Source: an uncultured delta proteobacterium
GTDB lineage: Bacteria; Desulfobacterota; Binatia; UBA9968
NCBI GenBank assembly: GCA_963804165.1
Contig: CAWDPO010000001.1
Span: 64,001-128,000 of the forward strand
DNA: 64,000 bases
Reading direction: 5' to 3'
Made by a program: the position numbers and the translations under genes. Position 1 is the stretch's first letter. Each line of letters begins with the position of its first letter. The notes under the pieces were generated by a model. That model did no database searches. It saw only the letters and a program-made list of their open reading frames with translations, and had not been told where the DNA came from. Below are positions 37,421 through 55,783 of this stretch, piece after piece.

Positions 37421-37688
37421 TTCACTTATCTCCCAAGTAAAATTACCGCGCGCGCCCGCCCATCAATTCGCCTGCGTACCGGCCGGATCCGCGGCGCAGA
37501 TAGCGCAAGCGGGTTTGAAACCACGTGCCTTCGGGCCACTGCCAATTGTTTCCGGGGAGCCCTTCACCACCATAGGCGCCGTTATTTACGCGACTTAGAG
37601 TAAAAATTAGTTCCCATGAGTTCATTGCAAAATCTCCTCCTCTTTCGGATGACGTTGAACGGGTCTCATGCCGGATTCCGTGCGACGC

Positions 37689-38111
37689 TCAACCGGCGAG
37701 CTTGGATCGCTCCGCGACCTCGGCATAGCGATTCGTTTTTTGGTTTCTTTCTTTCCATCGCAGCAACCCCTGGCGCACGTATTCGGGGTTTAACCCCAAT
37801 GCTTCGCAAACGCTGTCGAAGGAAAAAATCCAATCGCCGGACGCCGTGCGGATCCATTGCTCGGTTTCTTCGAATAACCTCTTTTTCTTGGCGCCGCGCG
37901 AAATCAAATTGACCTGGTAGCAATTAATTGCGTCTTCCAAGAGCGCCAGCATAAGCCGCTTCTCCGGCTCGAAGTAGGTTTTTCTGCGCAGGTTTTCAAA
38001 GTACTGAGCCGACAGCAACATGTCGGGCTGAAACAACGACGTGATCTTCTCGTCTGCCGTGAGCGCGCTCTGCTCACTATCGTGACTTACGCTGGCCGCG
38101 CGTGGATTCAT
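37689..38111 (-). CDS. Conserved hypothetical helical protein (PEKRLMLA..EDA / FSF..VCE.LGL.P family)
   Basis: Recognisable motif family; RBS GGAGG. Confidence 0.75.
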   Translation of the reverse strand: MNPRAASVSHDSEQSALTADEKITSLFQPDMLLSAQYFENLRRKTYFEPEKRLMLALLEDAINCYQVNLISRGAKKKRLFEETEQWIRTASGDWIFSFDSVCEALGLNPEYVRQGLLRWKERNQKTNRYAEVAERSKLAG

Positions 38112-38123
38112 GCTTCCCTCCCG

Positions 38124-38465
38124 CTAATCAATATTGCGACCCATGTGAGGGTCGATTTTGCGCACGATCTCGGTTTTGCTCGCGGCGCCCAGCAGGCGTT
38201 CGATTTCCGCGCCGTCTTTAAAGAGAATCAGTGTCGGAATCCCGCGAACGTCGTAACGCGCTGCGGTGCGCGGGCTGTCGTCGACATTCAATTTGACAAC
38301 CCGGCCGCGCTCAGCCCAATCGATCGCGAGCGCTTCAACCGTCGGCGCGAGCGCACGGCATGGCGTGCACCACTCGGCCCAAAAATCCACCAATACCGGT
38401 TTTTCTGAGTGCAAAACCTCCTGCTCGAAATTGTCATCGTTTATTTCCCCGATCGCTCTACTCAT
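38124..38465 (-). CDS. trxA: Thioredoxin
   Basis: PVLVDFWAEWCTPC, KLNVD and RGIPTL.LFKDG motifs; the start overlaps the upstream stop (ATGA). Confidence 0.9.
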   Translation of the reverse strand: MSRAIGEINDDNFEQEVLHSEKPVLVDFWAEWCTPCRALAPTVEALAIDWAERGRVVKLNVDDSPRTAARYDVRGIPTLILFKDGAEIERLLGAASKTEIVRKIDPHMGRNID

Positions 38466-38737
38466 CGTCGTTCTCCTCCTTTGATCTCTTCGATGATCGC
38501 GGTGATCATGCAACCCGCGGCGGCCAGCTCCGCGCCTTGCCGATGCATCTCGGCTAATACGATCCGTCCCGCCTGATCGACATACGACACCTGTTTCAGC
38601 ACGACGGTGACCTGCTCGCCGCTGCCGACAGCGCGCTGCCAGCATTCTTTCAATTCTGCGACCCAAGGACCGGTGAGGCTCCCCTCGAGCTCAAGAATCG
38701 TCTGCTGACCGTCAGCGTGAGTCGTGATTTTCAACAT
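38462..38737 (-). CDS. STAS-domain (anti-sigma antagonist-like) protein
   Basis: MLKIT..LELEG.L.GPWV.EL, V.L..VSYVD..G..L. Confidence 0.75.
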   Translation of the reverse strand: MLKITTHADGQQTILELEGSLTGPWVAELKECWQRAVGSGEQVTVVLKQVSYVDQAGRIVLAEMHRQGAELAAAGCMITAIIEEIKGGERR

Positions 38738-38754
38738 AAGTCAGAAAAAAGCCC

Positions 38755-39168
38755 TCAAAAAAAACTGCCCTCGACCAGCGGAACAAAGACTCCTTCAAGC
38801 TGCTCTTCTCCCTCGACGAACGCGCGATCGACGGCTACTCGTTGAATGCCAAAGCGATCGAACCAGGCAACGGCAACGAGACTACCGTCACGGTTGTAGA
38901 CCTCGAGATAATCCGACGTTCTTTGGGTCGATGGATCGTCGTAAACGACCGCCAAGCCCAGCGCTACGCCCTGTTCCACCAGGGGAGACAACAAAACCAA
39001 ACTCAACGGCTGCTGCGACATATCGAGCGTCGGTAAATCGATTTTGCTCCCCGAGCCGCCCTCCGCGGCACTGACATTCGGGCTGACTTGCGACGCGATC
39101 AAGATGGTCGCGGCGGCGAACAGCACAAGCTTGAACCCGGCTAAAGAAACTTTGTGTTTGAATGACAT
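38755..39168 (-). CDS. Secreted hypothetical protein
   Basis: Signal peptide; YDDP.T.R..DY.E.Y..W.DRFG motif; RBS GGAGG. Confidence 0.7.
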   Translation of the reverse strand: MSFKHKVSLAGFKLVLFAAATILIASQVSPNVSAAEGGSGSKIDLPTLDMSQQPLSLVLLSPLVEQGVALGLAVVYDDPSTQRTSDYLEVYNRDGSLVAVAWFDRFGIQRVAVDRAFVEGEEQLEGVFVPLVEGSFF

Positions 39169-39249
39169 TGTCGGTCCTCCCCGGTGCGACATTCTCACTG
39201 CCAAATAATTTGCCGAATAGACCCTAAGTCTCACGATGATCGAATCGGC

Positions 39250-39426
39250 TTAGGTTAACAGTCGACGGGCATCGCCGATGATTCTCGATCCTGCGCGCAT
39301 ACCGCGCAGACCAAACTCAATCGCCGTCGAAATCAGCGCCGCTTCGAAACCGTGGATTTGTGCTCGCGCCAGCCAAGCAGTGCCAATCCACAACAACCCT
39401 GCAAACATCGGAATATCGAGCTTCAT
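39250..39426 (-). CDS. Small (58 aa) membrane-associated protein, absent from the ORF track
   Basis: MKLDIPMFAGLLWIGTAWLARAQIHGFEAALISTAIEFGLRGMRAGSRIIGDARRLLT; RBS GGAGAGG; first ORF after a sigma54 promoter. Confidence 0.5.
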   Translation of the reverse strand: MKLDIPMFAGLLWIGTAWLARAQIHGFEAALISTAIEFGLRGMRAGSRIIGDARRLLT

Positions 39427-39471
39427 AACTTCTGCCGCCTCTCCAAGCTGTTCCTGTCATAAGGTGCTATG

Positions 39472-39487
39472 GCAACATGGGTGCCAA
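39472..39487 (-). promoter_or_regulatory. Sigma54 promoter
   Basis: TTGGCAC-CCATG-TTGC on the minus strand. Confidence 0.85.
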
Positions 39488-39582
39488 ACGTCCCGTGTGA
39501 AAAATGGCTCCGCAACTCGTGATAATTTGACAAGTTACGTCGGTGGAATGCGATTGTCCTAATGTGATGCCGAAAGTCTTGT

Positions 39583-39614
39583 GACGACCTGTCGGCACGC
39601 GCCGACATTATGGC
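39583..39614. promoter_or_regulatory. Tandem palindromic enhancer (UAS), copy 1
   Basis: GACGACCTGTCGGC-ACGC-GCCGACATTATGGC, 97 bp upstream of the -24 element. Confidence 0.7.
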
Positions 39615-42222: not shown

Positions 42223-42684
42223 TCATCTGCGAGACGGCGGCTGATACGTTCCCGGCTCAGCGCGAAAACTGATCGTAATGCGATTCCAAGCGTTGATCGT
42301 GACCACCGTTAGGGTTAAATCCGCCAACTCCTGTTCACTGAATTGCCGGCGAGTCTGTTCGTAGAGTTCATCCGGCGCGTGATTGTCGGCGATCAACGTC
42401 AGAGTTTCGGTCCAGTCCAGGGCGGCGCGCTCGCGTTCGCTGTAGTACGGCGCCTCCCGCCACGCGACCAAACCGTAAAGGCGCTGTTCGGTTTCGCCTG
42501 CGGCCCGCGCGTCTTTCCAATGCATATCGATGCAATAAGCGCAGCCGTTGATTTGCGACGCGCGCAGCTTGATCAATTCGCGCAGCGGCGGCTCGATGCT
42601 GCTTTCGGCTAAATATTTCTCCAGGCCATACATTGCCCGTAACGCGCCGGATGCGACTTTGGTGTAATCGATTCGGGGTAACAT
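42223..42684 (-). CDS. Carboxymuconolactone decarboxylase/AhpD family protein
   Basis: LRASQINGCAYCIDMH, WRE, ERAAL and INAWNR motifs. Confidence 0.92.
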   Translation of the reverse strand: MLPRIDYTKVASGALRAMYGLEKYLAESSIEPPLRELIKLRASQINGCAYCIDMHWKDARAAGETEQRLYGLVAWREAPYYSERERAALDWTETLTLIADNHAPDELYEQTRRQFSEQELADLTLTVVTINAWNRITISFRAEPGTYQPPSRR

Positions 42685-42725
42685 CAAATTTCTCCTTTTT
42701 GTTTAATTCTCGAATCAGGTCGGTT

Positions 42726-43038
42726 TTAGCCAATGTGACTCATCGCCATTTCCTCAGCTCGGCTGGACTGCTCGTTTCGTTTCTTGGACGTTGCTGATCG
42801 ACGCACCTGAAAGAGCGTGACGAGATGAAGCATGACAAACAACGGAACAAAAAACGCAGGGATCAGAACCAGCGGCAAGCGCGCCACTGGAAAGGTGGTG
42901 ACGCCAATCGCGGGTACCGGCGGCACCCCGGGCGCTCTGACAAATGCTCCGCTAGCGCCAAGCACAAAAACCAGCCCGAACCAAATCGCCAGCCCGGCTG
43001 CGACGCTTGACGGCATTAGGATCTGGCATCGTTTTCAT
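42726..43038 (-). pseudogene. Membrane protein remnant with apparent internal deletion and frameshift
   Basis: N-terminal TM (WFGLVF.LGA.GAF) is joined directly to the C-terminal M/V..LPLVLIPAF.VP..LH segment. Confidence 0.55.
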
Positions 43039-43092
43039 GACAACCTCACGATTGTTAATTTGAACATTCTGCCCAGGCAATTTCTAACCTTG

Positions 43093-43107
43093 GCAATGGT
43101 TGTGCCA
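43093..43107 (-). promoter_or_regulatory. Sigma54 promoter
   Basis: TGGCAC-AACCA-TTGC on the minus strand. Confidence 0.85.
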
Positions 43108-43204
43108 CGCCGCTCGGGGAGCGTAAAAAATGTCGCCGATGATGCAATTGATCGAAGATTATTGTGAGGCGATCTGCGGCCTAGCGATAACTCAGCCGAA
43201 GTCT

Positions 43205-43236
43205 GACGATTTTTCGGCACGTGACTAAATCTAGGC
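43205..43236. promoter_or_regulatory. Tandem palindromic enhancer (UAS), copy 2
   Basis: GACGATTTTTCGGC-ACGT-GACTAAATCTAGGC, 98 bp upstream of the -24 element. Confidence 0.65.
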
Positions 43237-44449: not shown

Positions 44450-45139
44450 TCATTTATCCAGCCAAATATTCATCCCTGTGCCGGTTTCTTCGATGGCGAG
44501 TTTGCTAAAACGACTGCTTGCGACCAGTTCTTCGATCTCATTTTTGACATAGGCGCGTTTCTTCAGCATCAGCTCAAAAGTCCATTTCGTAATGAACGTG
44601 TCCCACCAGCTCAGGCCGATCGTGTCGACGTATTCATCGATGGTTTCCTTCGGCGCGTCCCGGCGCAAATCTATGATCAATGCTCTGGCGCCGTCTTTCA
44701 AAACGCGATGCATTTCATTGAGCGCGGCGGCGGGATGGGCAAAATTCTTGAACGCCGCGCGGCAAACGAGGAAATCGAATGTGGCATTTTCGTATGGCAT
44801 AACTGCCACATTGCCCTGACGAAAGTCGATGTGGACGCCCGCTGCGCGGGCATTTTCTTGGGCGATTTGGACAAAAGTTCTGCTGATATCCAAGCCAAAA
44901 ATCTGATAACGGCGTAGCTTCGCAAGCTCGATGGCGAGATAACCCGGTCCTGGAGCGACTTCCAAAACTCGGCTGCCCTCCGGCAAATGTCTGGTTATAT
45001 CGCTTGCGCACTGTTTGAACTCTGTGAGCGTTTTCGCCGTATTCTTCGCATACCAACGGGCGACCGGCCCCTCCATCGCCAGTCCTTTGTAGCCCTTTGA
45101 GTGTTTCGGCCTGATCTCGTCAGTCTGAATAATATCCAT
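44450..45139 (-). CDS. Class I SAM-dependent methyltransferase (UbiE-like)
   Basis: VLEVAPGPG, GLDIS, FD and EMHRVLK motifs; start placed at 45139, downstream of the promoter. Confidence 0.9.
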   Translation of the reverse strand: MDIIQTDEIRPKHSKGYKGLAMEGPVARWYAKNTAKTLTEFKQCASDITRHLPEGSRVLEVAPGPGYLAIELAKLRRYQIFGLDISRTFVQIAQENARAAGVHIDFRQGNVAVMPYENATFDFLVCRAAFKNFAHPAAALNEMHRVLKDGARALIIDLRRDAPKETIDEYVDTIGLSWWDTFITKWTFELMLKKRAYVKNEIEELVASSRFSKLAIEETGTGMNIWLDK

Positions 45140-45160
45140 GTTCGCTCCGCTTGAATTAAA

Positions 45161-45177
45161 TGCAATGTCGGTGCCAA
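45161..45177 (-). promoter_or_regulatory. Sigma54 promoter
   Basis: TTGGCAC-CGACA-TTGCA on the minus strand. Confidence 0.8.
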
Positions 45178-45589
45178 TAGTGAATTCCACAGAGAGTCCG
45201 GAAAACTAAAGACTGCAATTATCGCGAGGCGAAATCACAATCAAAATTGTGATGAACTGAGACCTGTTCATGCCTCAGCGGCACGGGCGCAGGAAGATTC
45301 ATACACGCCGCTTCATTTCCTCCATACGGCCGGTGGCAACGGTTGAAGATCCATCGATGTCGTGCGCGCCAATAACGACCAAAAATGTAGGAGGAAAAAA
45401 CCTTCGACGGCTTAAGCGCAGATCAGAACGACTCGGTGCGATCCTCACCAAAGATTTCCTTGTGCTTGGCGTCAACCAGATTGGCATTGAACCAACTCGG
45501 GTAAAGGTTCGCCGGCGCGGAGATCCGCCGACTCGAAGCAACTCAAAAGAACTTGCTACGTCAATGACGAAGCTGGAACGAGCACGCCT

Positions 45590-45997
45590 TCAGTTGATTT
45601 GCTCTCGCTCCCGTGGATACGCCGGCAGTCGATCATCTAAAACAATCCAGGATAGACAGCTCTCCGTCCAGGTATGATCTTCCGGTATCAGTGTTTCCGG
45701 TTCGTCCAGGCTGCCGAGTGTTACGTCAATGGAGTCCGGCAAATCGGCGCGACGATAAGTCAATGCAGTTCCGCAATGACTGCAGAAAGTGCGCTTGACG
45801 TTTGGCGAGGACGCGTAGAAAGCCGGTTCGCGCTTGGTAAACGTGAATTTGTCTGTATCGAAACCGGCCCACGTCACAAACGGCGCGCCGCTCGCACGGC
45901 GGCAGGTTTTGCAATGGCAATGGGTGATGCCATGAGCCGGTCCATATGCGCGATAGCGAATTGCGCCACAAAGACATCCGCCTTCAATAGCTTCCAC
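45590..45997 (-). CDS. GFA (CENP-V/glutathione-dependent formaldehyde-activating) family protein
   Basis: GGCLCG, CHC..CRR and R.FC..CGT motifs. Confidence 0.92.
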   Translation of the reverse strand: MEAIEGGCLCGAIRYRAYGPAHGITHCHCKTCRRASGAPFVTWAGFDTDKFTFTKREPAFYASSPNVKRTFCSHCGTALTYRRADLPDSIDVTLGSLDEPETLIPEDHTWTESCLSWIVLDDRLPAYPREREQIN

Positions 45998-46079: not shown

Positions 46080-46502
46080 TTATGTGAAGTTGGCACCCTT
46101 TCTGATTAACCCCACCCCCAAAGTGATGACTCCGGCAGCCAGAACAACTGCGCCGACATACGCCAGATAGATCAATCCGTTGGGCTCGCGGGCTTGGGGC
46201 GATAGGACCGAAAGGAAAAAAGCTACCGGCAAAAGAATCGCCGCGGACGGCGCGGCCAACCTGACGAATCTCTTTGCTGGCTCCGACAAATGCGCGTCGT
46301 CGACGTAGCGAAGAACCAGCAGACTCAAAATCAGCAGCAGGCCGGCATGCGCGTGACCAGCCCGCCAGAGATTTTGTCGCAACGGGTTAGCCGCGTAACC
46401 TGGCTCCCAAATCAGCATGGATAATAGGCTCCCGCCACCGATCATGACGGTTGGGAGAACGACCAGTAGAATCCCGGCGATTCGGTACGATTCTTTGCTC
46501 AA
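46080..46502 (-). CDS. 4-TM membrane protein with RAGHAHAG motif
   Basis: Four hydrophobic segments; conserved HAH motif; RBS GAGGAG. Confidence 0.75.
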   Translation of the reverse strand: MSKESYRIAGILLVVLPTVMIGGGSLLSMLIWEPGYAANPLRQNLWRAGHAHAGLLLILSLLVLRYVDDAHLSEPAKRFVRLAAPSAAILLPVAFFLSVLSPQAREPNGLIYLAYVGAVVLAAGVITLGVGLIRKGANFT

Positions 46503-46577: not shown

Positions 46578-46763
46578 CTAGTCGGCTTTTTCTTCATCGC
46601 ACACGGACACGTCCAACAACGCTCCAGCTTCGCGGCAATCCAAGTCATATTGCTGCATGAGTAAGGTCGCCGCATCTTCGCGGCGATCTTCATGCAACGC
46701 GTTACGCGCTTCAGGAGACAGCGTCTTTCCGCCAAGCAGAAGTGGCACAAACGAAAGTTTCAT
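46578..46763 (-). CDS. Small Cys-pair protein A (61 aa)
   Basis: MKLSFVPLLLGG..SPEAR.AL...DAA..L...Y.L.C.EAG.LLD...C; RBS AAAGGA; paralog at 50347-50524. Confidence 0.75.
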   Translation of the reverse strand: MKLSFVPLLLGGKTLSPEARNALHEDRREDAATLLMQQYDLDCREAGALLDVSVCDEEKAD

Positions 46764-46806
46764 GAGAAATGATCCTTTCTTGAGTCTTTTGTCGGACGTG
46801 TTATGC

Positions 46807-46822
46807 GCAACGCGCATGCCAA
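46807..46822 (-). promoter_or_regulatory. Sigma54 promoter
   Basis: TTGGCAT-GCGCG-TTGC on the minus strand. Confidence 0.85.
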
Positions 46823-46926
46823 CGCGGTTTACCGGATAAATTCCGTGTTAACTGTACCAATCCGGGAGCTTGGACGACAGAAATTTCGTCTTGAAAAGAA
46901 AACCGAAAATGTGCCGAAGGCTGCGT

Positions 46927-46958
46927 GCCGATTTATCGGCAGACGCCGAAATGATGGC
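46927..46958. promoter_or_regulatory. Tandem palindromic enhancer (UAS), copy 3
   Basis: GCCGATTTATCGGC-AGAC-GCCGAAATGATGGC, 106 bp upstream of the -24 element. Confidence 0.75.
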
Positions 46959-47040
46959 TTGAAGCGAAGTAGCTGACCACTCTCATCATCACAGAGCGGA
47001 TAGCTCTTAGGATCGGCCTGCACGACTCATTTGAATTTCC

Positions 47041-47793
47041 CTACTGTAACGGCGCAGTTCTCCACCTTTCGAGGCGAAAGCCGGGATCCCAGCCCAGCTC
47101 GCGGCGCGCTTTCGCAATCGAAACAAAGCCGGTGTCCGCAGCGATGTTGAAAATACCGGTTACCGTTCGCTCGATCGCCAGCAGCGTCGCTTGCGCTGCG
47201 GCGTCGACGTGAACTGGTGCTGACCCATTCGGTTTAGCGCTGCCAGTTGCAGGACCGTAGAACTGCCCATAACGCAGGACCACGCCGACAAGCGGCGCCG
47301 ACCCCAGGGTCAATCGCTCCAACGTGGCGACGCCCTGTACGCTGATGGCACGGGCTCCGTCGGAGGCCAGATCGAGCGGAGCACTTTCTAAATAAGGCTG
47401 CGGCCCTGGCGCATAGGCCCAGGCGATACTCTGCGCAATCAGGCGGCTCGCTCCCGCTGCCGAAGCGGCAGCAACGAGATTTTTCGTTCCCTCACTGCGA
47501 ATGCGCGCGTTACGTGCGGTCGCCTCCGCTCTCAGCTTTGGATCGCGGCCGAGGCGCAGATCCGAGAGCTGGTGAATGACGATGTCCGGCTGCACCGTAG
47601 TCATCACGAGAGACAACGCCGGCGCGTCAAATACATCGATGACGATCGGCTTCACACCGGCCGCCTCAAGTTCAGCGGCTTTCGTCTCTGACCTGGTCGT
47701 GCCGAAAACTTCATATCCGGTATTCGCGAGGAGCGGCCCTAGCCGACTGCCGATCGCGCCGGTCGCTCCTGCAAGAAAAACTTTGCGCGGCAT
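47041..47793 (-). CDS. NAD-dependent epimerase/dehydratase family protein
   Basis: VFLAGATGAIG, PDIVIHQL, LRYG.FYG and VHVD.AA motifs. Confidence 0.88.
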   Translation of the reverse strand: MPRKVFLAGATGAIGSRLGPLLANTGYEVFGTTRSETKAAELEAAGVKPIVIDVFDAPALSLVMTTVQPDIVIHQLSDLRLGRDPKLRAEATARNARIRSEGTKNLVAAASAAGASRLIAQSIAWAYAPGPQPYLESAPLDLASDGARAISVQGVATLERLTLGSAPLVGVVLRYGQFYGPATGSAKPNGSAPVHVDAAAQATLLAIERTVTGIFNIAADTGFVSIAKARRELGWDPGFRLERWRTAPLQ

Positions 47794-47865
47794 AAATGTC
47801 ACTCCAAGGATTTTAAATTCGATCCGACAGCGGGCCCGACTGTCCTCGGGAATCTCGGACGTCAA

Positions 47866-48646
47866 TCAATAAATAGTTCGGACGAGACCGCCTTCCGCCC
47901 GCAGGGCAGCACCGTTAGTGGCCGACGACAGAGGACTTGCAACGAAAGCCGTCAAGTTTGCAATCTCACGTGGGTCAATCAAGCGTTGCAAGAGAGACGA
48001 AGATCGGTGCTTTTCAAAAAATTCCTTCTCGGCTTCTGCCGGTGTGGGTTCTGTCTTCGAGGACACGCTCCGCAAGAAATCGACGATTCCTTCAGACATC
48101 GTCGGTCCCGGGAGAATCGAGTTGACGGTAACTTTCGTTCCCTTGGTCAGCTCGGCGAGCCCTCTCGCAACCGCAAGCTGAGCTGACTTGGTAAACCCGT
48201 AGTGAACCATTTCTGGGGGAGTCATGATGCCGGAGTCGCTGGAAATGAAAATGATCCGGCCGAAGTTGCGCTCTAGCATGCCGCGCATGTAGTGACGCGC
48301 GAGACGAACGCCGCTCATCACGTTGATCTTGAAAATATGCATCCAGTCGGAATCTTGAAGCTCGAAGAATGCCGAGGTTGTTCACCAATACATCGACAAC
48401 AGGCACGGAACTGATCATCGTTTCGATGCCGTCAGGTATACCCAAATCGGCCGCCACGACCATAACATCCAAGGCTTTTCCTGAGGATGATTGAATCGAT
48501 TCCTTGGCTTTCTCGAGTTTCGCTTGGCTACGACCCGCGATGATCACGTTCGCCCCTTCACCTGCCAGCGCCGTAGCGATCGCCAGCCCGATGCCGGAAG
48601 TCGATCCTGATACGAGCGCTTTCTTGCCGTCCAATTGTAAGTTCAC
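47866..48646 (-). CDS. SDR family oxidoreductase, frameshift near 48350
   Basis: SGSTSGIG and NNLGI in the first ORF; NVMSG, YGFTK, VNSILPG and TNGAALR.EGG in the second. Confidence 0.88.
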
Positions 48647-48709
48647 CTGCAAGTCCCCCTTTTGATACTACTCAACTCGAATTTCTATGTCGTCAACACG
48701 CGAAGCGAA

Positions 48710-49144
48710 TCAGAGGTTCACCAGTCCCATCATCTCTTCAGGATAACGCCCGCCACTTGCTACGCCGCGCGGCGCGACCTCATCGATACGTTCTAGCTCT
48801 TTCGCGCTGAGCTGTATTCCTACGGCAGCGGCGTTCTGCTCCAGATAGCTGCGCCGCTTCGTTCCAGGAATCGGAATGATGTCATCGTCTTGCGCCAGCA
48901 CCCAAGCGAGCGCTAGTTGTGAAGCGGTGCAACCCTTTTCGCTCGCAATCGCCTCGACGCGTCGGACCAATTCCAGATTGCGGCGAAAGTTTTCCCCCTG
49001 GAAGCGGGGATTGGTGCGGCGCCAATCATCCGCCGACAGATCCTCCTCCCGCTTGAACTCGCCGTACGCGTAAGACATGCCCATGCAGCCAAGACCGATC
49101 GCCGAAACCAACGGTCCATTCTTACCTAAACGTCTTTGCTTCAT
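48710..49144 (-). pseudogene. Aldo/keto reductase with large in-frame internal deletion
   Basis: N-terminal GLGCMGMS..YG fused directly to the C-terminal PRFQGEN, QLALAWVL and PIPGTK; the catalytic D/Y/K/H region is missing. Confidence 0.85.
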
Positions 49145-49203
49145 TTGTTGTTCTCCCTTTTTCTCAAGACACCTGACGGTGCCAAAATAATATTCCCGCG
49201 TCG

Positions 49204-50217
49204 TTATTGCTTTTGCTGCGCGACGCGGACGATCAGTTTGCCGAAATTGCGTCCTTGCAAAAGTCCAATCAACGCTTCGGGCGCATGCTCCAAACCATCG
49301 ACGATATCTTCACGGTATTTGATGCGCCCATCGCGCAGCCACGCGGATACATCGCGCAAAAAATCGCCGAACCGCGCGCCGTGGTCGGTGATGATAAAAC
49401 CGCGCACCGTCAGGCGCTTGCTAAGCACATGTCGGAAGTCCGGGCTCGGAGCCGACGTCGCGTCGTTGTAGTGCGCAACAAGTCCGCAGACAACCGCGCG
49501 CGCGAAATTATTGAGCAGCGGCCAGATTGCCTGCAGTACAGCGCCGCCGACGTTTTCGAAATCGACGTCGACTCCATTCGGACAAGCGCGCGCGAGCGCC
49601 GGTGCGAAATCCGCCGCGCGATGATCGATGCATGCATCGAAGCCAAGTTCATCAACGACGTAGCGGCGCTTCGTCTCGCCGCCGGCAATACCGATTACTC
49701 GGCAGCCTTTGATCTTGGCGATTTGGCCAACCACTGAACCCACCGCGCCGGAAGCGGCTGACACGACTATGGTTTCCCCGGGCTTTGGCTGACCAATATC
49801 GAGCAGACCGAAATAGGCCGTATGTCCCGGCATGCCGAGCACTCCGAGCGCCGTCGAAACCGGCGCCAGCGCCGGATCTAACTTGCGCAATGTTTTGGCG
49901 GGAATGACCGCGTAGTCTTGCCAATTGCCGAAACCGACGACGATATCGCCGGGAACAAAGGCCGGGTCGCGCGAAGTGATCACCTCGCCGACCGTCTGGC
50001 CGACCATGACGCCACCGATCGGCACCGGCGCGGCGTACGATTTCGTTTCGTTCATCCGCCCGCGCATGTACGGATCGAGCGAAAGAAAAAGCGTGCGCGT
50101 CAGCACTTCTCCATCAGACGGCTCGGGAATCGGAGCATCGACGATCTCGAAATTGGCTTGGGTGGGCACGCCCACCGGCCGGGAGGCCAATCTAACTTGC
50201 CGGTTCAGCTTTGCCAT
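49204..50217 (-). CDS. NADP-dependent oxidoreductase (MDR, CurA/PGR-like)
   Basis: SLDPYMRGRM, LGMPG.TAY.GL, AASGAVG, ENVGG and G.NFGK motifs. Confidence 0.93.
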   Translation of the reverse strand: MAKLNRQVRLASRPVGVPTQANFEIVDAPIPEPSDGEVLTRTLFLSLDPYMRGRMNETKSYAAPVPIGGVMVGQTVGEVITSRDPAFVPGDIVVGFGNWQDYAVIPAKTLRKLDPALAPVSTALGVLGMPGHTAYFGLLDIGQPKPGETIVVSAASGAVGSVVGQIAKIKGCRVIGIAGGETKRRYVVDELGFDACIDHRAADFAPALARACPNGVDVDFENVGGAVLQAIWPLLNNFARAVVCGLVAHYNDATSAPSPDFRHVLSKRLTVRGFIITDHGARFGDFLRDVSAWLRDGRIKYREDIVDGLEHAPEALIGLLQGRNFGKLIVRVAQQKQ

Positions 50218-50346
50218 GCCACTTTCCTCCATGGGTCATTCGACTCAACCGCCGGGCGTTCGCCAAACGATTGCAAAATTACGCGACGCTGATCAGAAAA
50301 CGGTCAGAACCGTGCAACATCCCTTTCTAGAAACCAAATAAAGCGA

Positions 50347-50524
50347 TCAATCATCCTGGCACGCGGCGATATCTAAAAGATGTCCGGCTTCAACACAATT
50401 CAACCCGTATCCCGCGATCAAGATGTCCGCTGCATCCTTGATACGGTTCTCCCGCAAAGCCTGACGCGCTTCAGCTGAGATGCTTTCTCCGGTGAGCAGC
50501 AAGGGCACAAGTGAAAATTTCCAT
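50347..50524 (-). CDS. Small Cys-pair protein B (~58 aa), one extra G after the ATG; absent from the ORF track
   Basis: (M)KFSLVPLLLTGESISAEARQALRENRIKDAADILIAGYGLNCVEAGHLLDIAACQDD*, clearly homologous to 46578-46763. Confidence 0.7.
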
Positions 50525-50587: not shown

Positions 50588-51322
50588 TCACACCTCACAC
50601 CACGCCGCGGCCAGCTTGCACGTTTGTCCGGTGATCCAACGGGCGGCGTCACTGGCGAGAAATAAGGCCACCTCGGAGATGTCTTCCGGAGCACCGACGC
50701 AATTGAAGGGCGACAAACTCGCGCCGTAATCGCGGTACTCATCGGGCATGTCCGTATCGGTAAATCCCGGCGAGAGAACGTTTACGGTGACATTGCGCGG
50801 ACCCAACCCGAGCGACAGCGAGCGAGCGAACTGCTCGATGGCCCCTTTACTGCCGAGATAGAGCGACATGTTGGCAAAATGCATTTTCGTACCGCCGGTC
50901 GAAACGACGACAATGTGACCGCCCTCGCGCACACGGCGGGCGGCCTCTTGCAACGTGAAAAAGACCCCTCTCGTATTGATGTCGAAAATGTAATCGTAAT
51001 CCGCCTCGGTGTTTTCGATCAGCGGTTTTTCAATATGGACGCCGGCGTTGGCGATGACGATATCGAGACCGCCCATCGCCTTTTCAGCTTCGCTGAATAA
51101 GCGCCGCACCTCCGCAGGTCTGGAAACATCAGCGTGAATCGCTATGGCGTTGCCGCCCTTCGTCGAGATCGACATTACGACCTCATGGGCCAGTTGTTCG
51201 TTACGCGCGTAGTTGATAACGACCGACGCACCATCTGCAGCAAGCCGTTCAGCGATTGCCCGGCCGATGCCACGTGAACCGCCGGTAATGAGCGCCGTTT
51301 TTCCCTCGAGTGACATAGACAT
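50588..51322 (-). CDS. SDR family oxidoreductase
   Basis: TGGSRGIG, ANAG, YLGSK and PGFTDT motifs; the last residues are probably frameshifted. Confidence 0.92.
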   Translation of the reverse strand: MSMSLEGKTALITGGSRGIGRAIAERLAADGASVVINYARNEQLAHEVVMSISTKGGNAIAIHADVSRPAEVRRLFSEAEKAMGGLDIVIANAGVHIEKPLIENTEADYDYIFDINTRGVFFTLQEAARRVREGGHIVVVSTGGTKMHFANMSLYLGSKGAIEQFARSLSLGLGPRNVTVNVLSPGFTDTDMPDEYRDYGASLSPFNCVGAPEDISEVALFLASDAARWITGQTCKLAAAWCEV

Positions 51323-51412: not shown

Positions 51413-51428
51413 ACAAGGTGCGTGCCAG
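51413..51428 (-). promoter_or_regulatory. Sigma54 promoter (TTGT variant at -12)
   Basis: CTGGCAC-GCACC-TTGT on the minus strand. Confidence 0.65.
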
Positions 51429-51526
51429 GCCCTGTGGTGTTCGAAGGAAGCCTATAAATGCTTCGCACAGACGCACTTAGACAGCTCCTGATTAGGGTTT
51501 GAAAACGAACGTGATGAAGAAAGCCT

Positions 51527-51558
51527 GCCGACTTATCGGCAAGCGCCGAAATAGTGGC
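51527..51558. promoter_or_regulatory. Tandem palindromic enhancer (UAS), copy 4
   Basis: GCCGACTTATCGGC-AAGC-GCCGAAATAGTGGC, 100 bp upstream of the -24 element and abutting the activator stop codon. Confidence 0.75.
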
Positions 51559-51559
51559 G

Positions 51560-53620
51560 CTAGTTGGTGCGAGCGATGCCTAACTTTTTCATTCTCGACT
51601 GCAGCGTGGTTCGCTTTATGCCGAGCCGGACCGCGGCGCCCGTAGGTCCGCCGATGGTCCAGTTCGTTTCGGAGAGGGCGCGCATGATGTGGTCTCGTTC
51701 GGCGTGCTCCAGCGTCGCGAGACCGTTTGAAGATTCGAACACTGGGGTTTTCGTTCTTTGCTTTAACTCCGCCAGAGGAAACTGGAGCTCCGTACCGCGG
51801 GATAGAATCACCGCGCGCTCGATGAAGTTTTCGAGCTCGCGCACATTGCCGGGCCAGTGATATTCCGTCAGGGCGCTCATTGCCTTTGTCGGTATCGTAT
51901 CTATCGGCTTTTTCATCCGGCGCGCGTGCTTCTGCGCGAAATACCGCACCAGCAGCGGAATATCTTGCCTCCGCTCCCGTAGCGTCGGCAGGACGATCGG
52001 AAAAACGTTGAGCCGGTAGTAGAGGTCCCTGCGAAATTGATTCTCGGCCACCTTTTGCGCCAGATCGGCGTTGGTGGCGGCGACTAAACGAACGTCTACC
52101 CGGATCGTCCGCGCGCTACCGAGACGTTCGAATTCCTGCTCTTGCAGCACGCGGAGAAGCTTGGGCTGGAGGTCGAGGGAGATGTCGCCGACTTCGTCGA
52201 GGAAGAGCGTGCCTCGGTGCGCGAGCTCGAATCGCCCTTGGCGCTGGGCAATAGCCCCAGTAAAGGCACCCTTTTCGTGTCCGAATAGCTCGCTTTCGAG
52301 CAGGCCCGTCGGAATCGCAGCGCAGTTTACCTTGACCAGCGTGCGCTCGCGTCGGGCGCTCAAATGATGTATGGCGCGCGCGATCAATTCCTTGCCGGTG
52401 CCGGTCTCGCCCAAGATGAGAATCGTCGAATCGGTGGGCGCCACGGTCTGCAATTCTTTAAGAATCCCCTTCAACACGGGACTTTCACCGACGATCTCTT
52501 CAAAGTTGTACTCGGTGCGAATCTCATCTTGCAGGTAGAGCTTTTCTTCGCTCAGTTGATTGGCCCGCTCCACTTCCCTGCGATAGGCGAGCGAATTTTC
52601 GACCGCGATGGCGATCTGATTGGCGACGTTTCGCAGCAGTTCGGCATCGCGTTCCGGAAAATTCTCCTCGTGCAGACTGGCCACAACGAGCGTACCCAAA
52701 GGTCGGCCGTGAGAAATCAGGGGCAAGACGTAGCCCGACTTCAGCCCTTCGGCGAGGATACGCCGGGCAATGTCGGAGCCAAATTGTTCAATGTCGCTAC
52801 GGGTGATGAAAACCGGCCGACGCGTGGTCAAGGCCCGACCGGTCGGTGTCCCCTCGATGGGCACCGAAAGACCCTCTTGAATAAGCCCCTTGCTGATCGG
52901 GAAGTCTAAGGCGTGAATTTGCAGCCGCTGTGTTTCCGGATCGAAAAGAGACAGGCTGGCGTATTCATGTGGCACCAAGCGTCGCAGCGAGCCTGACACG
53001 GCGTTCAGCAACTCGTGCAAATCGAGCACCGAGACGATGGTATTATTTACTTCAAGCAGTATATTCAGACGGTCGCGTTCTTCCTTGAGTTGCTGCTGCA
53101 CCGATTGGGCTTCGGCAAAATTAAGCGCGTTATCCAAAGCGACCGCGACTTGCCGAGCTACCTGCTGCAGGAAGATGACGTCAATCTCAGAATAGGCTCC
53201 TTCAAGTCGGCTGCCGAAAGCCAGGGCTCCGAGTTTCCTGAGCGCTGTGGTCACTGGAACGACGCAGAGCGACGATACCCCGCGGCTGCATAGCCACTGC
53301 GCCACCTCAGGAAACCGCGTCTCGCTGCTAAGCTTTGCCGCCACCCACGGTTTTTGCGTATCCCGCACCCAACCGCCCGGGGTTTCCATCGGACAATCGC
53401 CGGGCGGACAAGTATACGCCGGGTCCGGCGTCTCCAGAACATGGGATTTCATCACCTGCCGCGTCGGTTCGTAGAGAATCAGATTGGCAAAGTCGAACTG
53501 CACGACATGATGCAGCCGCGGCGCAAGGTCTTTGAAGAGCTGGTCGAGATCGCGTTGCGACGCGATTCTTTCGGAAATTTCGAGCAAAGTTTGGAATTGG
53601 CTGTGCAAAAGATCCATCAT
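51560..53620 (-). CDS. FhlA-type sigma54 enhancer-binding protein (GAF-GAF-AAA-HTH)
   Basis: Two GAF domains; [23 protein letters not shown] and WPGNVREL; HTH GAAVRLG.KRTTL. Confidence 0.95.
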
Positions 53621-53978
53621 TTGGCACTCGCGGGAACTGAATTCTACGCGCCTAAGAGTATACGGCGACCGGCGCCGGATCAAGACGTCGGGCTCGATGA
53701 CCCCGTCAGATCGTCGCGACAGTTTGACCCATTCAAGGTCAATCATGGAAAACAATAATTCAGAAAAATTCTGGCAGTGGATTGCTCGTTCGAGTAATAT
53801 TTCATTGCGACATTCTTGCGTGGTTGAATGACACCTTGGGAGAACACCAGTATTTGATTTTGGTTGCGGGGCACCTTTGATCCTCCTCTGATTGGGCAGT
53901 CAGATTTAGAAGATCTTTCTCTCCAGCAGCTCGCCTCCGTTCCTTAAAAAAATCTGCAAACGTCGCAGGCTAGGAGTT

Positions 53979-55516: not shown

Positions 55517-55717
55517 TCATGTGGATTTAAGAACCGAACCCTTTTTCAGCCGTACTCGTCGCGACACTATCAAATCATTCAAAATGTAGGACACCAAGAT
55601 GTCAGCGTTCGCTGTGTTCTTCGCCAACGGATATACCGCATCGGACACCGCTACAATTAGATCACCTAAGGTCGTGTTTATGTGTTTTCTTCCATGCATG
55701 CTCACTATCTCCTTCAT
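55517..55717 (-). CDS. Small hypothetical protein (TTLGDLIVAV.D motif)
   Basis: 60-66 aa ORF, RBS AAGGAG before the Met at 55699; sigma54 promoter upstream. Confidence 0.6.
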   Translation of the reverse strand: MKEIVSMHGRKHINTTLGDLIVAVSDAVYPLAKNTANADILVSYILNDLIVSRRVRLKKGSVLKST

Positions 55718-55767: not shown

Positions 55768-55783
55768 AGCAAGGGCTATGCCA
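55768..55783 (-). promoter_or_regulatory. Sigma54 promoter
   Basis: TGGCAT-AGCCC-TTGCT on the minus strand. Confidence 0.75.

Follow-up and report, generated by a model that had tools for sequence, protein, structure and literature searches.

The 64,000-nucleotide (nt) stretch analyzed here (positions 64,001 to 128,000 of contig CAWDPO010000001.1, assembly GCA_963804165.1; hereafter called the window) stems from a member of the Binatia, which are abundant, uncultured soil bacteria without genetics. On its minus strand the window carries two open reading frames (ORFs), copy A (46578-46763) and copy B (50347-50524), each encoding a version of a domain of about 55 residues that we named S. The initial annotation had described them as full-length paralogs sharing a Cys motif, and this description proved correct: both ORFs are present, their products align without gaps with 30 identities over 58 positions (52%; BLASTP, E 3e-21), and the motif C-x-EAG-x-L-[LV]-D-x3-C is common to both. 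Copy A is an intact ATG gene for 61 amino acids (aa; MKLSFVPLLLGGK...CREAGALLDVSVCDEEKAD) and is functional. As had been annotated, it is the first ORF behind a sigma-54 promoter (TGGCAT-GCGCG-TTGC), which lies at 46807-46821 on the minus strand (TGGCATGCGCGTTGC), 58 nt before the ATG. About 105 nt further upstream there is an enhancer-like site (46926-46953, minus strand; CATTTCGGCGTC-TGCCGATAAATCGGCA), which contains an exact palindrome at 46926-46941. The copy A unit continues with a gene for a 140-aa hydrophobic protein of no known family (46080-46502, minus strand; ORF cluster c20), which also follows S in three other loci (L038, L042, and L045), and with a third gene that was assigned by ORF clustering to the glutathione-dependent formaldehyde-activating (GFA) type (45590-45997, minus strand).

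Copy B is arranged differently. It is located 61 nt behind the end of a short-chain dehydrogenase/reductase (SDR) gene (50588-51322, minus strand; Pfam adh_short_C2, 2.3e-54), and the conserved promoter is situated upstream of this SDR gene and not of copy B, so that the annotated position at the head of a gene block had to be withdrawn for this copy. The sigma-54-type promoter of the SDR-copy B unit (51413-51427, minus strand; TGGCACGCACCTTGT) has TTGT as its -12 element. The corresponding enhancer-like site (51526-51553, minus strand; TATTTCGGCGCT-TGCCGATAAGTCGGCA), with an exact palindrome at 51526-51541, directly follows the stop codon of an activator gene (51560-53755, minus strand). According to Pfam, this gene encodes a sigma-54 activator with the domain order GAF-GAF-AAA+-HTH_8 (731 aa as called).

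The start of copy B is disrupted, just as initially reported: the ATG (50522-50524) is followed by a single extra G (50521), then by AAA TTT, and 58 codons plus a stop codon are read in the +1 frame. In the alignment, this G is missing from three B-type relatives (L086, L092, and G199). The protein frame itself (50347-50523) has a stop seven codons upstream and offers no ATG, GTG, or TTG before the GTG at 50508. Hence, copy B cannot be made at full length as assembled. None of the public contigs compared spans position 50521, the nearest one (X4 record 31) ending at 50508, and copy B is either a start-frameshifted pseudogene in this genome or the result of a one-base assembly error. An S gene split over two frames was also found in another long-contig assembly (L029, contig C2 of G224, approximately 1591362-1591521), and it is possible that indel errors in such assemblies are a common cause of split S genes, including the one in the window. 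The leaders of the two copies had been described as homologous, with copy B keeping the -12 element but having lost the GG at -24. The letters do read in this way: TTGCGCA occurs 48 nt before the ATG of copy B and 47 nt before that of copy A, and by eye the -24 position is AGCGTC in copy B versus TGGCAT in copy A. The likeness as such, however, comes down to one heptamer at equal spacing and the ribosome site AAGAAAGGA. As the heptamer is not retained in the B-type relatives, its presence in copy B may be a relic or due to chance.

The S family and its predicted fold

S is an unnamed, lineage-restricted protein family under purifying selection and represents a real gene family. A word-indexed search yielded 106 clusters at 59-100% identity, all of which are unnamed or labeled as hypothetical, except for one with the JGI label "galactokinase" (P0073). 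The named sources are metagenome-assembled genomes of Candidatus Binatia. An exhaustive search of 1.84 billion protein representatives gave 67 matches at E <= 1e-3, of which 11 reached E <= 1e-10. Long repeat proteins among the representative matches (P0111, P0137, P0163, and P0169) were rejected as low-complexity chance matches, and a weak match on contig C8 of the window's own genome turned out to be an unrelated protein with an N-terminal hydrophobic stretch. Within the class sample of 201 genomes (200 plus the window's own), S matches occurred in 5 of 13 genomes of the window's family-level clade and in none of the 187 genomes from 19 other families; a wider sample of this clade had an S match in 25 of 61 genomes. 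Pairwise Nei-Gojobori analysis of the first 55 codons yielded a median ratio of nonsynonymous to synonymous substitutions (dN/dS) of 0.089 for the type-A genes (29 unique genes, 285 pairs) and of 0.184 for the type-B genes (21 unique genes, 183 pairs; for the two types see below), with a median dS above 1 in both cases.

The initial annotation had not recognized the family, and we likewise could not assign it to any known family in Pfam, NCBIfam, PDB-sequence, or fold searches. Copy A had no Pfam family at E <= 10 and no NCBIfam family at E <= 1, while copy B had no Pfam family and a single NCBIfam row (E 0.11; 11.7 bits versus a cut-off of 427). The profile search against PDB sequences returned only designed helical repeat proteins, which were matched via an "EAR-x-AL-x-E-x-R-x-x-AA" helix pair and were rejected as relatives, and the ESM Atlas contained only unnamed clusters with scores below 0.9. 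A literature search yielded no work joining Binatia and sigma-54; the family itself has no name and therefore is not searchable by name.

Eighteen residues are invariant among the 28 close members, namely S4, V6, P7, L8, L9, L10, G12, E18, A22, L23, A31, A32, L41, E45, A46, L49, D51, and C55, and C43 is conserved in at least 90% of them. In the 38 wider members, C55 is still conserved to at least 90%, and several members end exactly at this residue. The AlphaFold2 model of S, calculated with 38 sequences, consists of four short helices of 6-12 residues (residues 5-10, 17-24, 28-39, and 43-50; predicted local distance difference test (pLDDT) 76.6, predicted template modeling score (pTM) 0.61), whereby Cys43 is the first residue of the last helix. 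Within the model of a longer protein that carries S at its C-terminus (P0136, see below), the S part reached a pLDDT of 90-97 at an overall pTM of 0.59. Thus, the S domain is predicted to be all-helical. It has no signal peptide. With the S model, which is of moderate confidence (pLDDT 76.6), the best Foldseek hit in the PDB had an E-value of 4.2, and VIA-align against 48,161 chains gave as its best row a designed mini-binder (Z 3.9, root-mean-square deviation 2.6, 39 residues). The P0136 model did not lead to a family in either program, the best row having a Z of 6.6 and the hits being generic helical bundles. Two candidate assignments were dismissed on the basis of the model: a likeness of the C-terminal half to the L7/L12 C-terminal domain is not supported, as the model lacks strands, and a thioredoxin- or glutaredoxin-type protein would have CxxC on a thioredoxin fold, which does not agree with two Cys 11 residues apart in an all-helical model.

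Promoters, enhancer-like sites, and the neighboring activator

The upstream regions were compared for 77 entries, which comprise 12 genome loci, 57 of 63 metagenome loci, both copies of the window, and six matches in five further genomes (G020 has two). Six metagenome loci (L074 and L087-L091), in which the S match is truncated by the end of the contig, were excluded. Many of the entries are near-identical, and therefore unique counts are given alongside. Loci were assigned by protein motif to type A (MKLS...DLDC or DLNC) or, for the remainder, to type B, with copy A and copy B as the representatives in the window. A promoter element was defined as GG-N10-GC with a score of at least 8 of 11 against TGGCAC-N5-TTGCA. 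Among 37 type-A loci, only L052 and L054 lack such an element at 45-70 nt upstream of the ATG, so that 35 loci (26 of 28 unique upstream sequences) have it; L049 had too little upstream sequence to be counted. Of 36 type-A loci, 29 carry a palindrome TGCCGA-N4-TCGGCA with no more than one mismatch (26 have it exactly), located 150-184 nt ahead of the ATG. It lies about 120 nt upstream of the promoter element inside a longer conserved string, CATTTCGGCG-yy-TGCCGAyAAwTCGGCA, of which the CATTTCGGCG part contains a third half-site. Type-B genes are located 52-66 nt behind an SDR gene, and in the 16 type-B loci listed S comes immediately after the SDR gene. In three of these the sequence was too short; in all 13 others TGGCA[CT]-N5-TTGT, the variant with GT at -12, precedes the SDR gene, and in 12 of the 13 a palindrome with zero to two mismatches lies approximately 100-140 nt upstream of this promoter (the best one in L083 has three mismatches). 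In G105 the type-B gene directly follows the activator gene and carries promoter and palindrome itself. One locus binned as type B was promoter-positive (L059, 1 of 39), and this is a type-A gene with an internal stop.

In the window, the palindrome occurs four times, exactly at 46926-46941 and 51526-51541 and with one mismatch at 39582 and 43204, each time about 100 nt upstream of a minus-strand promoter (46807, 51413, 39472, and 43093, respectively). The 28-letter extended site, with three mismatches allowed, was found four times in the 7.5-Mb assembly versus not at all in the reversed control. Three of these sites are in the window; the fourth, on contig C6, has a perfect TGGCAC-N5-TTGC about 100 nt downstream of it. 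Two of the four precede the two S units. The genome also contains rpoN (Sigma54_DBD match of 5.4e-62 on contig C38). These sequence patterns place the S units in a small local sigma-54 regulon, in which each has an enhancer-like palindrome and a -24/-12 promoter and lies beside the activator gene. Both copies are thus predicted to be transcribed from enhancer-dependent sigma-54 promoters, as initially proposed, copy B via the SDR promoter. We infer that the neighboring activator binds the palindrome.

The stretch at 51523-51544, which follows the activator gene, was in addition scored as a hairpin of the terminator type. We prefer the enhancer over the terminator for the site at 51526 because its letters are conserved across divergent loci beyond what pairing would demand, and because the same letters precede promoters that are not at the same distance from a gene end. 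A second conserved dyad was observed between the enhancer-like site and the promoter of the SDR-copy B unit (approximately 51455-51478, minus strand). It is clearest in G199 and L021 (AAATGCTTC-N6-GAAGCATTT) and, by eye, imperfect in the window (AAGTGCGTC...GAAGCATTT) and in L025. This dyad could be a site for integration host factor or for a second regulator.

The best NCBIfam model for the activator is FhlA with 566 bits (1.3e-169), which is below the cut-off of 830. Activator residues 1-400 were searched in the 61 genomes of the family-level clade, whereby 27 genomes had a match at E <= 1e-100, five at 1e-50 to 1e-67, six a weaker one, and 23 none. Of the first 27 genomes, 19 have S, as do all five with intermediate matches and one of the other 29. 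Put differently, an activator match at E <= 1e-50 exists in 24 of the 25 genomes with S, and S in 24 of the 32 genomes with such a match. The single S match without a close activator (G247) is doubtful, comprising 32 residues at E 9.5e-4. In 11 genomes a single contig carries both S and the activator, no more than about 12 kb apart. Among the 61 genomes, two are flagged as unpublished (G232 with S and activator, G204 with activator only), and without both the counts are 23 of 30 and 1 of 29. The linkage to the GAF activator that had been claimed from the window was therefore found in other genomes as well, and the association is strong, short of a statistical proof, as these genomes are related and in part incomplete. 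In the first GAF domain (GAF1) of the activator (window 53260-53470, minus strand; residues approximately 96-164) a motif C-P-x-G-[ED]-C-P-M is present in 13 of 15 homologs and C164 in 14 of 15. The homologs without the motif are from G246 and G210, and both genomes still have S. Comparison of the S profile with the activator profile including HTH_8 by hhalign resulted in a probability of 0.3%, and its top row, which is not significant, was a weak resemblance of the invariant S-x-VPLLL of S to the GAF strand motif VPL-x3-G. The complex prediction for activator residues 40-670 with S, run without controls, scored 0.00, which gives no answer and speaks neither for nor against binding.

Possible roles of S

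In order to survey the neighborhood of S, ORFs encoding 80 aa or more within 5 kb of S were collected from the 77 entries (516 in total) and clustered, and representatives were scanned in Pfam. The most frequent families were aldo-keto reductases (42 ORFs in 35 entries), SDRs (40 in 31), and GFA proteins (25 in 23, including one ORF for an extracytoplasmic function sigma factor that had been chained in by mistake). These were followed by NmrA/epimerase-like proteins (16), GAF-GAF activators (15), luciferase-like monooxygenases (13), thioredoxins (13), methyltransferases (11), ADH_N_2 reductases (9), and MFS_3 proteins (7); glyoxalase and AhpD-like CMD proteins were also found. S keeps its position as first cistron while the downstream genes vary among loci. 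In the window, the regulon genes represent families of reductases and of thiol repair, namely SDR, alkenal-type reductase, aldo-keto reductase, GFA, and thioredoxin, and relatives have glyoxalase and AhpD-like genes. Given the known roles of such families, the regulon may respond to reactive carbonyls, electrophiles, or thiol oxidation.

A third regulon unit (37443-39609, minus strand) contributes five genes behind an enhancer-like site (39582-39609) and a promoter (39472-39486). All genes are on the minus strand and encode c8, a protein with a hydrophobic N-terminus (38755-39234), a STAS-like protein (38462-38737; weak STAS match of E 2.6e-5, below the cut-off), a thioredoxin (38124-38465), c3 (37689-38111), and c27 (37443-37625). 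While c3 and c27 are separate genes here, extension of the upstream frame and alignment revealed that in other genomes S forms the C-terminal domain of one or the other. The c3 protein (approximately 125-170 aa, motif EPEKRLMLAxLEDA) is fused to S in L027, G020a, P0136, P0164, and P0177/L023, and c27, which has a Trp-rich core of about 45 aa, in L026, L028, G038, G020b, and P0130. A search for longer proteins added one further c3-S form only. The c3 family has more than 1051 clusters, all labeled as hypothetical, and no known family or fold match was found for c3 or c27.

We tentatively propose that S is an accessory protein which depends on its thiol and exerts feedback on the activator. The activator would bind the palindrome and switch on the regulon under carbonyl, electrophile, or thiol stress, which it would probably sense through its own CPxGEC motif in GAF1. 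S itself would have no enzymatic activity and would act via the nearly invariant Cys at its C-terminal end, possibly assisted by Cys43. Being encoded by the first cistron after the strongest promoter, which is also the best conserved one, it might accumulate during the response and then damp or tune the activator in a negative feedback of the PspA-PspF type, whereby modification of the S thiol by the stressor would release the brake. This reading was chosen because of the first-cistron position behind the best-conserved promoter, because of the strict dependence of S on the presence of the activator, and because PspA-type circuits provide a precedent. The PspA-PspF system of Escherichia coli likewise combines a sigma-54 activator with a regulon in which the product of the first gene is not an enzyme and could feed back on the activator. 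With 222 aa, PspA is a coiled-coil protein of membrane stress from the IM30 family, and PspF lacks a sensory domain, whereas S has 61 aa, no Pfam match, and four helices of 6-12 residues, and the activator here has two GAF domains. A PspA/IM30 coiled-coil domain was found in S neither by Pfam nor in the model. ZraP, which is expressed from a sigma-54 promoter and acts back on the ZraSR system, also resembles S as a small accessory protein that is encoded beside the activator genes, feedback being a proposal in the case of S. Yet ZraP is a periplasmic, zinc-binding protein that acts on a sensor kinase, while no signal peptide is present in S and no kinase is encoded here.

Several observations weigh against a feedback role. 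The copy B type does not lie behind a promoter of its own, a promoter element being present in 0 of 38 true type-B loci. Cys43 is lost or replaced by R, F, W, or Q in 8 of the 38 wider members, and a two-Cys switch is therefore not family-wide. The only fusions found join S to c3 or c27 and none joins it to the activator, which points to c3 and c27 as partners. S was not detected in eight genomes with a close activator homolog (G161, G204, G206, G217, G229, G236, G237, and G241), which means that the activator works without it. The clade genomes are also related to one another, and their co-occurrence counts therefore suggest more independence than there is. The nature of the stress signal is a guess from the gene families. 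Finally, with its conserved GAF1 Cys motif the activator may sense the signal itself, as PexR and FisR do (PMC12754779). Of the initial proposal of a small redox- or metal-sensing feedback partner of the GAF activator, the parts that are borne out are thus the nearly invariant last Cys and the activator linkage, while conservation of both Cys does not hold and the fusions lead to other proteins.

About equally possible is a role on the effector side, in which S would be a physical partner of c3 and c27, perhaps also of thioredoxin, and would serve under electrophile or disulfide stress as a thiol relay, as a protective cap, or as a small chaperone, the stand-alone S genes of the window being split-off versions of the C-terminal domain. 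Such a role would agree with the true c3-S and c27-S fusions, in which the fused S has no Met of its own, and with the high pLDDT of the S part in the fusion model. It also fits the shared regulon operon of c3 and c27 with thioredoxin and the STAS-like protein, and the two fusions of G020, which sit between a thioredoxin and a thioredoxin-reductase-like gene. On the other hand, c3 is about ten times commoner than S (1051 versus 106 clusters) and hence mostly works without it, the pTM of 0.59 does not allow any packing of the two parts to be claimed, and c3 and c27 are themselves without known function or fold. Furthermore, the STAS-like neighbor hints that c3 and c27 might be regulatory, too, in which case the effector and the feedback role would merge. 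A rather unlikely combination of both is that S is a detachable thiol co-sensor, which would dock on the resting activator via S-x-VPLLL and be released upon covalent modification of the terminal Cys by an aldehyde or electrophile or formation of a disulfide with Cys43, and which, once induced and released, would also protect or escort c3 and c27.

We consider it unlikely that S is a small metal- or iron-sulfur-binding protein, in which two or more chains share Cys residues for Zn, Fe, Cu, or a cluster, and which functions in redox transfer or as a metallochaperone. The spacing of the two Cys by 11 residues and the acidic tail behind them would be compatible with this, and in PexR a Zn/Fe center in the GAF domain senses peroxide (PMC12754779). 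But only one Cys of S is near-universal, there is no conserved His or further ligand, and no metal-transport or cluster-assembly genes are among the neighbors. A cut-down helix-turn-helix (HTH) or another module that binds nucleic acids or sigma factors is very unlikely. The weak top Foldseek rows are sigma region 4 and the DNA-binding domains of CtsR and DeoR, and by eye the stretch CREAGELLDVS looks like the first helix of Fis-type HTH motifs. All of these Foldseek rows, however, have E > 4 and a TM-score of at most 0.40, the best VIA-align Z is 3.9, the profile comparison with the activator including HTH_8 gave the 0.3% mentioned above, and S is acidic and ends where the recognition helix would begin. 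That the ORFs do not function as proteins at all, being leader peptides or upstream ORFs, chance ORFs, or precursors of modified peptides, is hardly credible: copy A is short and at an operon head and copy B has no usable start in the assembly, but dN/dS values of 0.09 and 0.18 at dS > 1, a family of 106 clusters, and the occurrence of S as C-terminal domain in longer proteins argue against it, as does the lack of peptide-modifying enzymes among the 39 neighbor ORF clusters with at least three members (38 of them Pfam-scanned). A modified-peptide precursor was also rejected since it is the whole length of S that is conserved and not accompanied by a variable core.

PexR of Myxococcus xanthus is a GAF-domain sigma-54 activator that binds dyad repeats upstream of stress-defense genes and senses oxidants via its GAF domain; it has one metal-binding GAF domain and controls ahpC and katB (PMC12754779). 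The Binatia activator resembles it as a GAF sigma-54 activator with dyad sites upstream of putative stress-defense genes, to which it would bind and for which it would sense the signal, and differs by two GAF domains, the CPxGEC motif, and reductase and thioredoxin targets. The part of the PexR account considered mentions no small partner protein (PMC12754779). FisR is a sigma-54 activator that senses reactive sulfur species through Cys residues (PMC12754779), and the proposed thiol-based sensing that feeds a sigma-54 activator would be similar. In FisR, however, sensing takes place within the activator itself, and this part of the source mentions no separate small Cys protein. The term electrophile was not found among the matches listed in literature on GAF-domain/sigma-54 enhancer-binding proteins. 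With FhlA of E. coli the activator, not S, has the domain order GAF-GAF-AAA+-HTH in common; this likeness concerns architecture only, as the score is below the FhlA cut-off and the targets here are not formate-hydrogenlyase genes.

The locus constitutes a complete sigma-54 circuit that is readable from sequence, with activator, enhancer site, two promoter variants, and target genes, and no database has a description of the protein family that is its most conserved output. GAF-type enhancer-binding proteins would gain a small-protein layer if S modulates the activator, and S would then also form a compact thiol-based switch for aldehyde or electrophile stress. An effector role would make S a small stress protein of a new kind, which gene fusions link to two further unknown families. 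As a co-sensor, S would be the first small protein described in such a role for a GAF enhancer-binding protein, in a stress circuit so far found only in Binatia. The circuit is small enough to be rebuilt in E. coli, which has sigma-54, and the question is therefore directly testable.

Further features of the window

Behind copy B, all on the minus strand and assigned by Pfam, follow a reductase of the ADH_N_2/zinc-ADH type (49204-50232), an aldo-keto reductase remnant (48710-49144), an SDR gene broken into two frames (47866-48652), and an NAD-epimerase/NmrA-like gene (47041-47865). A weak terminator-like hairpin lies between the copy B stop codon and the first of these genes (50300-50313, minus strand). 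The remnant comprises the C-terminal 144 aa and covers profile positions 187-289 of 291. Compared with a relative's contig (run X4; 433 aligned positions, 16 differing letters), the region 47866-49144 contains a 1-base and a 17-base indel. The block is a case either of gene decay or of misassembly, and the damage to two neighboring genes together with the indels relative to this contig leans towards real decay.

Further promoter-like sequences were observed at some distance from the S genes. In the region 42223-43219 (minus strand), a one-mismatch palindrome (43204-43219) and an exact promoter (43093-43107) precede an ORF for a hydrophobic 96-aa protein and a CMD/AhpD-like gene. At the 5' end of a methyltransferase ORF (44450-45190) there is an exact sigma-54 promoter (45162-45176, minus strand), for which no palindrome was found. 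A near-identical string, TGGCACCGACATTGC[TG], occurs 108 nt upstream of methyltransferase genes in L034, L036, L046, and L048, while in L055 it is within the called methyltransferase ORF. In L018 and L030-L033, another promoter-like string, TGGCATCAGCATTGCG, lies 120 nt before the methyltransferase gene. The fourth extended enhancer-like site with its perfect promoter, on contig C6 of the window's own genome (L105; 3880-4010, minus strand), is followed by an ORF that by eye resembles an alpha/beta-hydrolase with the middle part missing. Finally, an exact TGGCAT-N5-TTGC at 55769-55783 (minus strand) precedes a 66-aa ORF (55517-55717, minus strand) that is unrelated to S.

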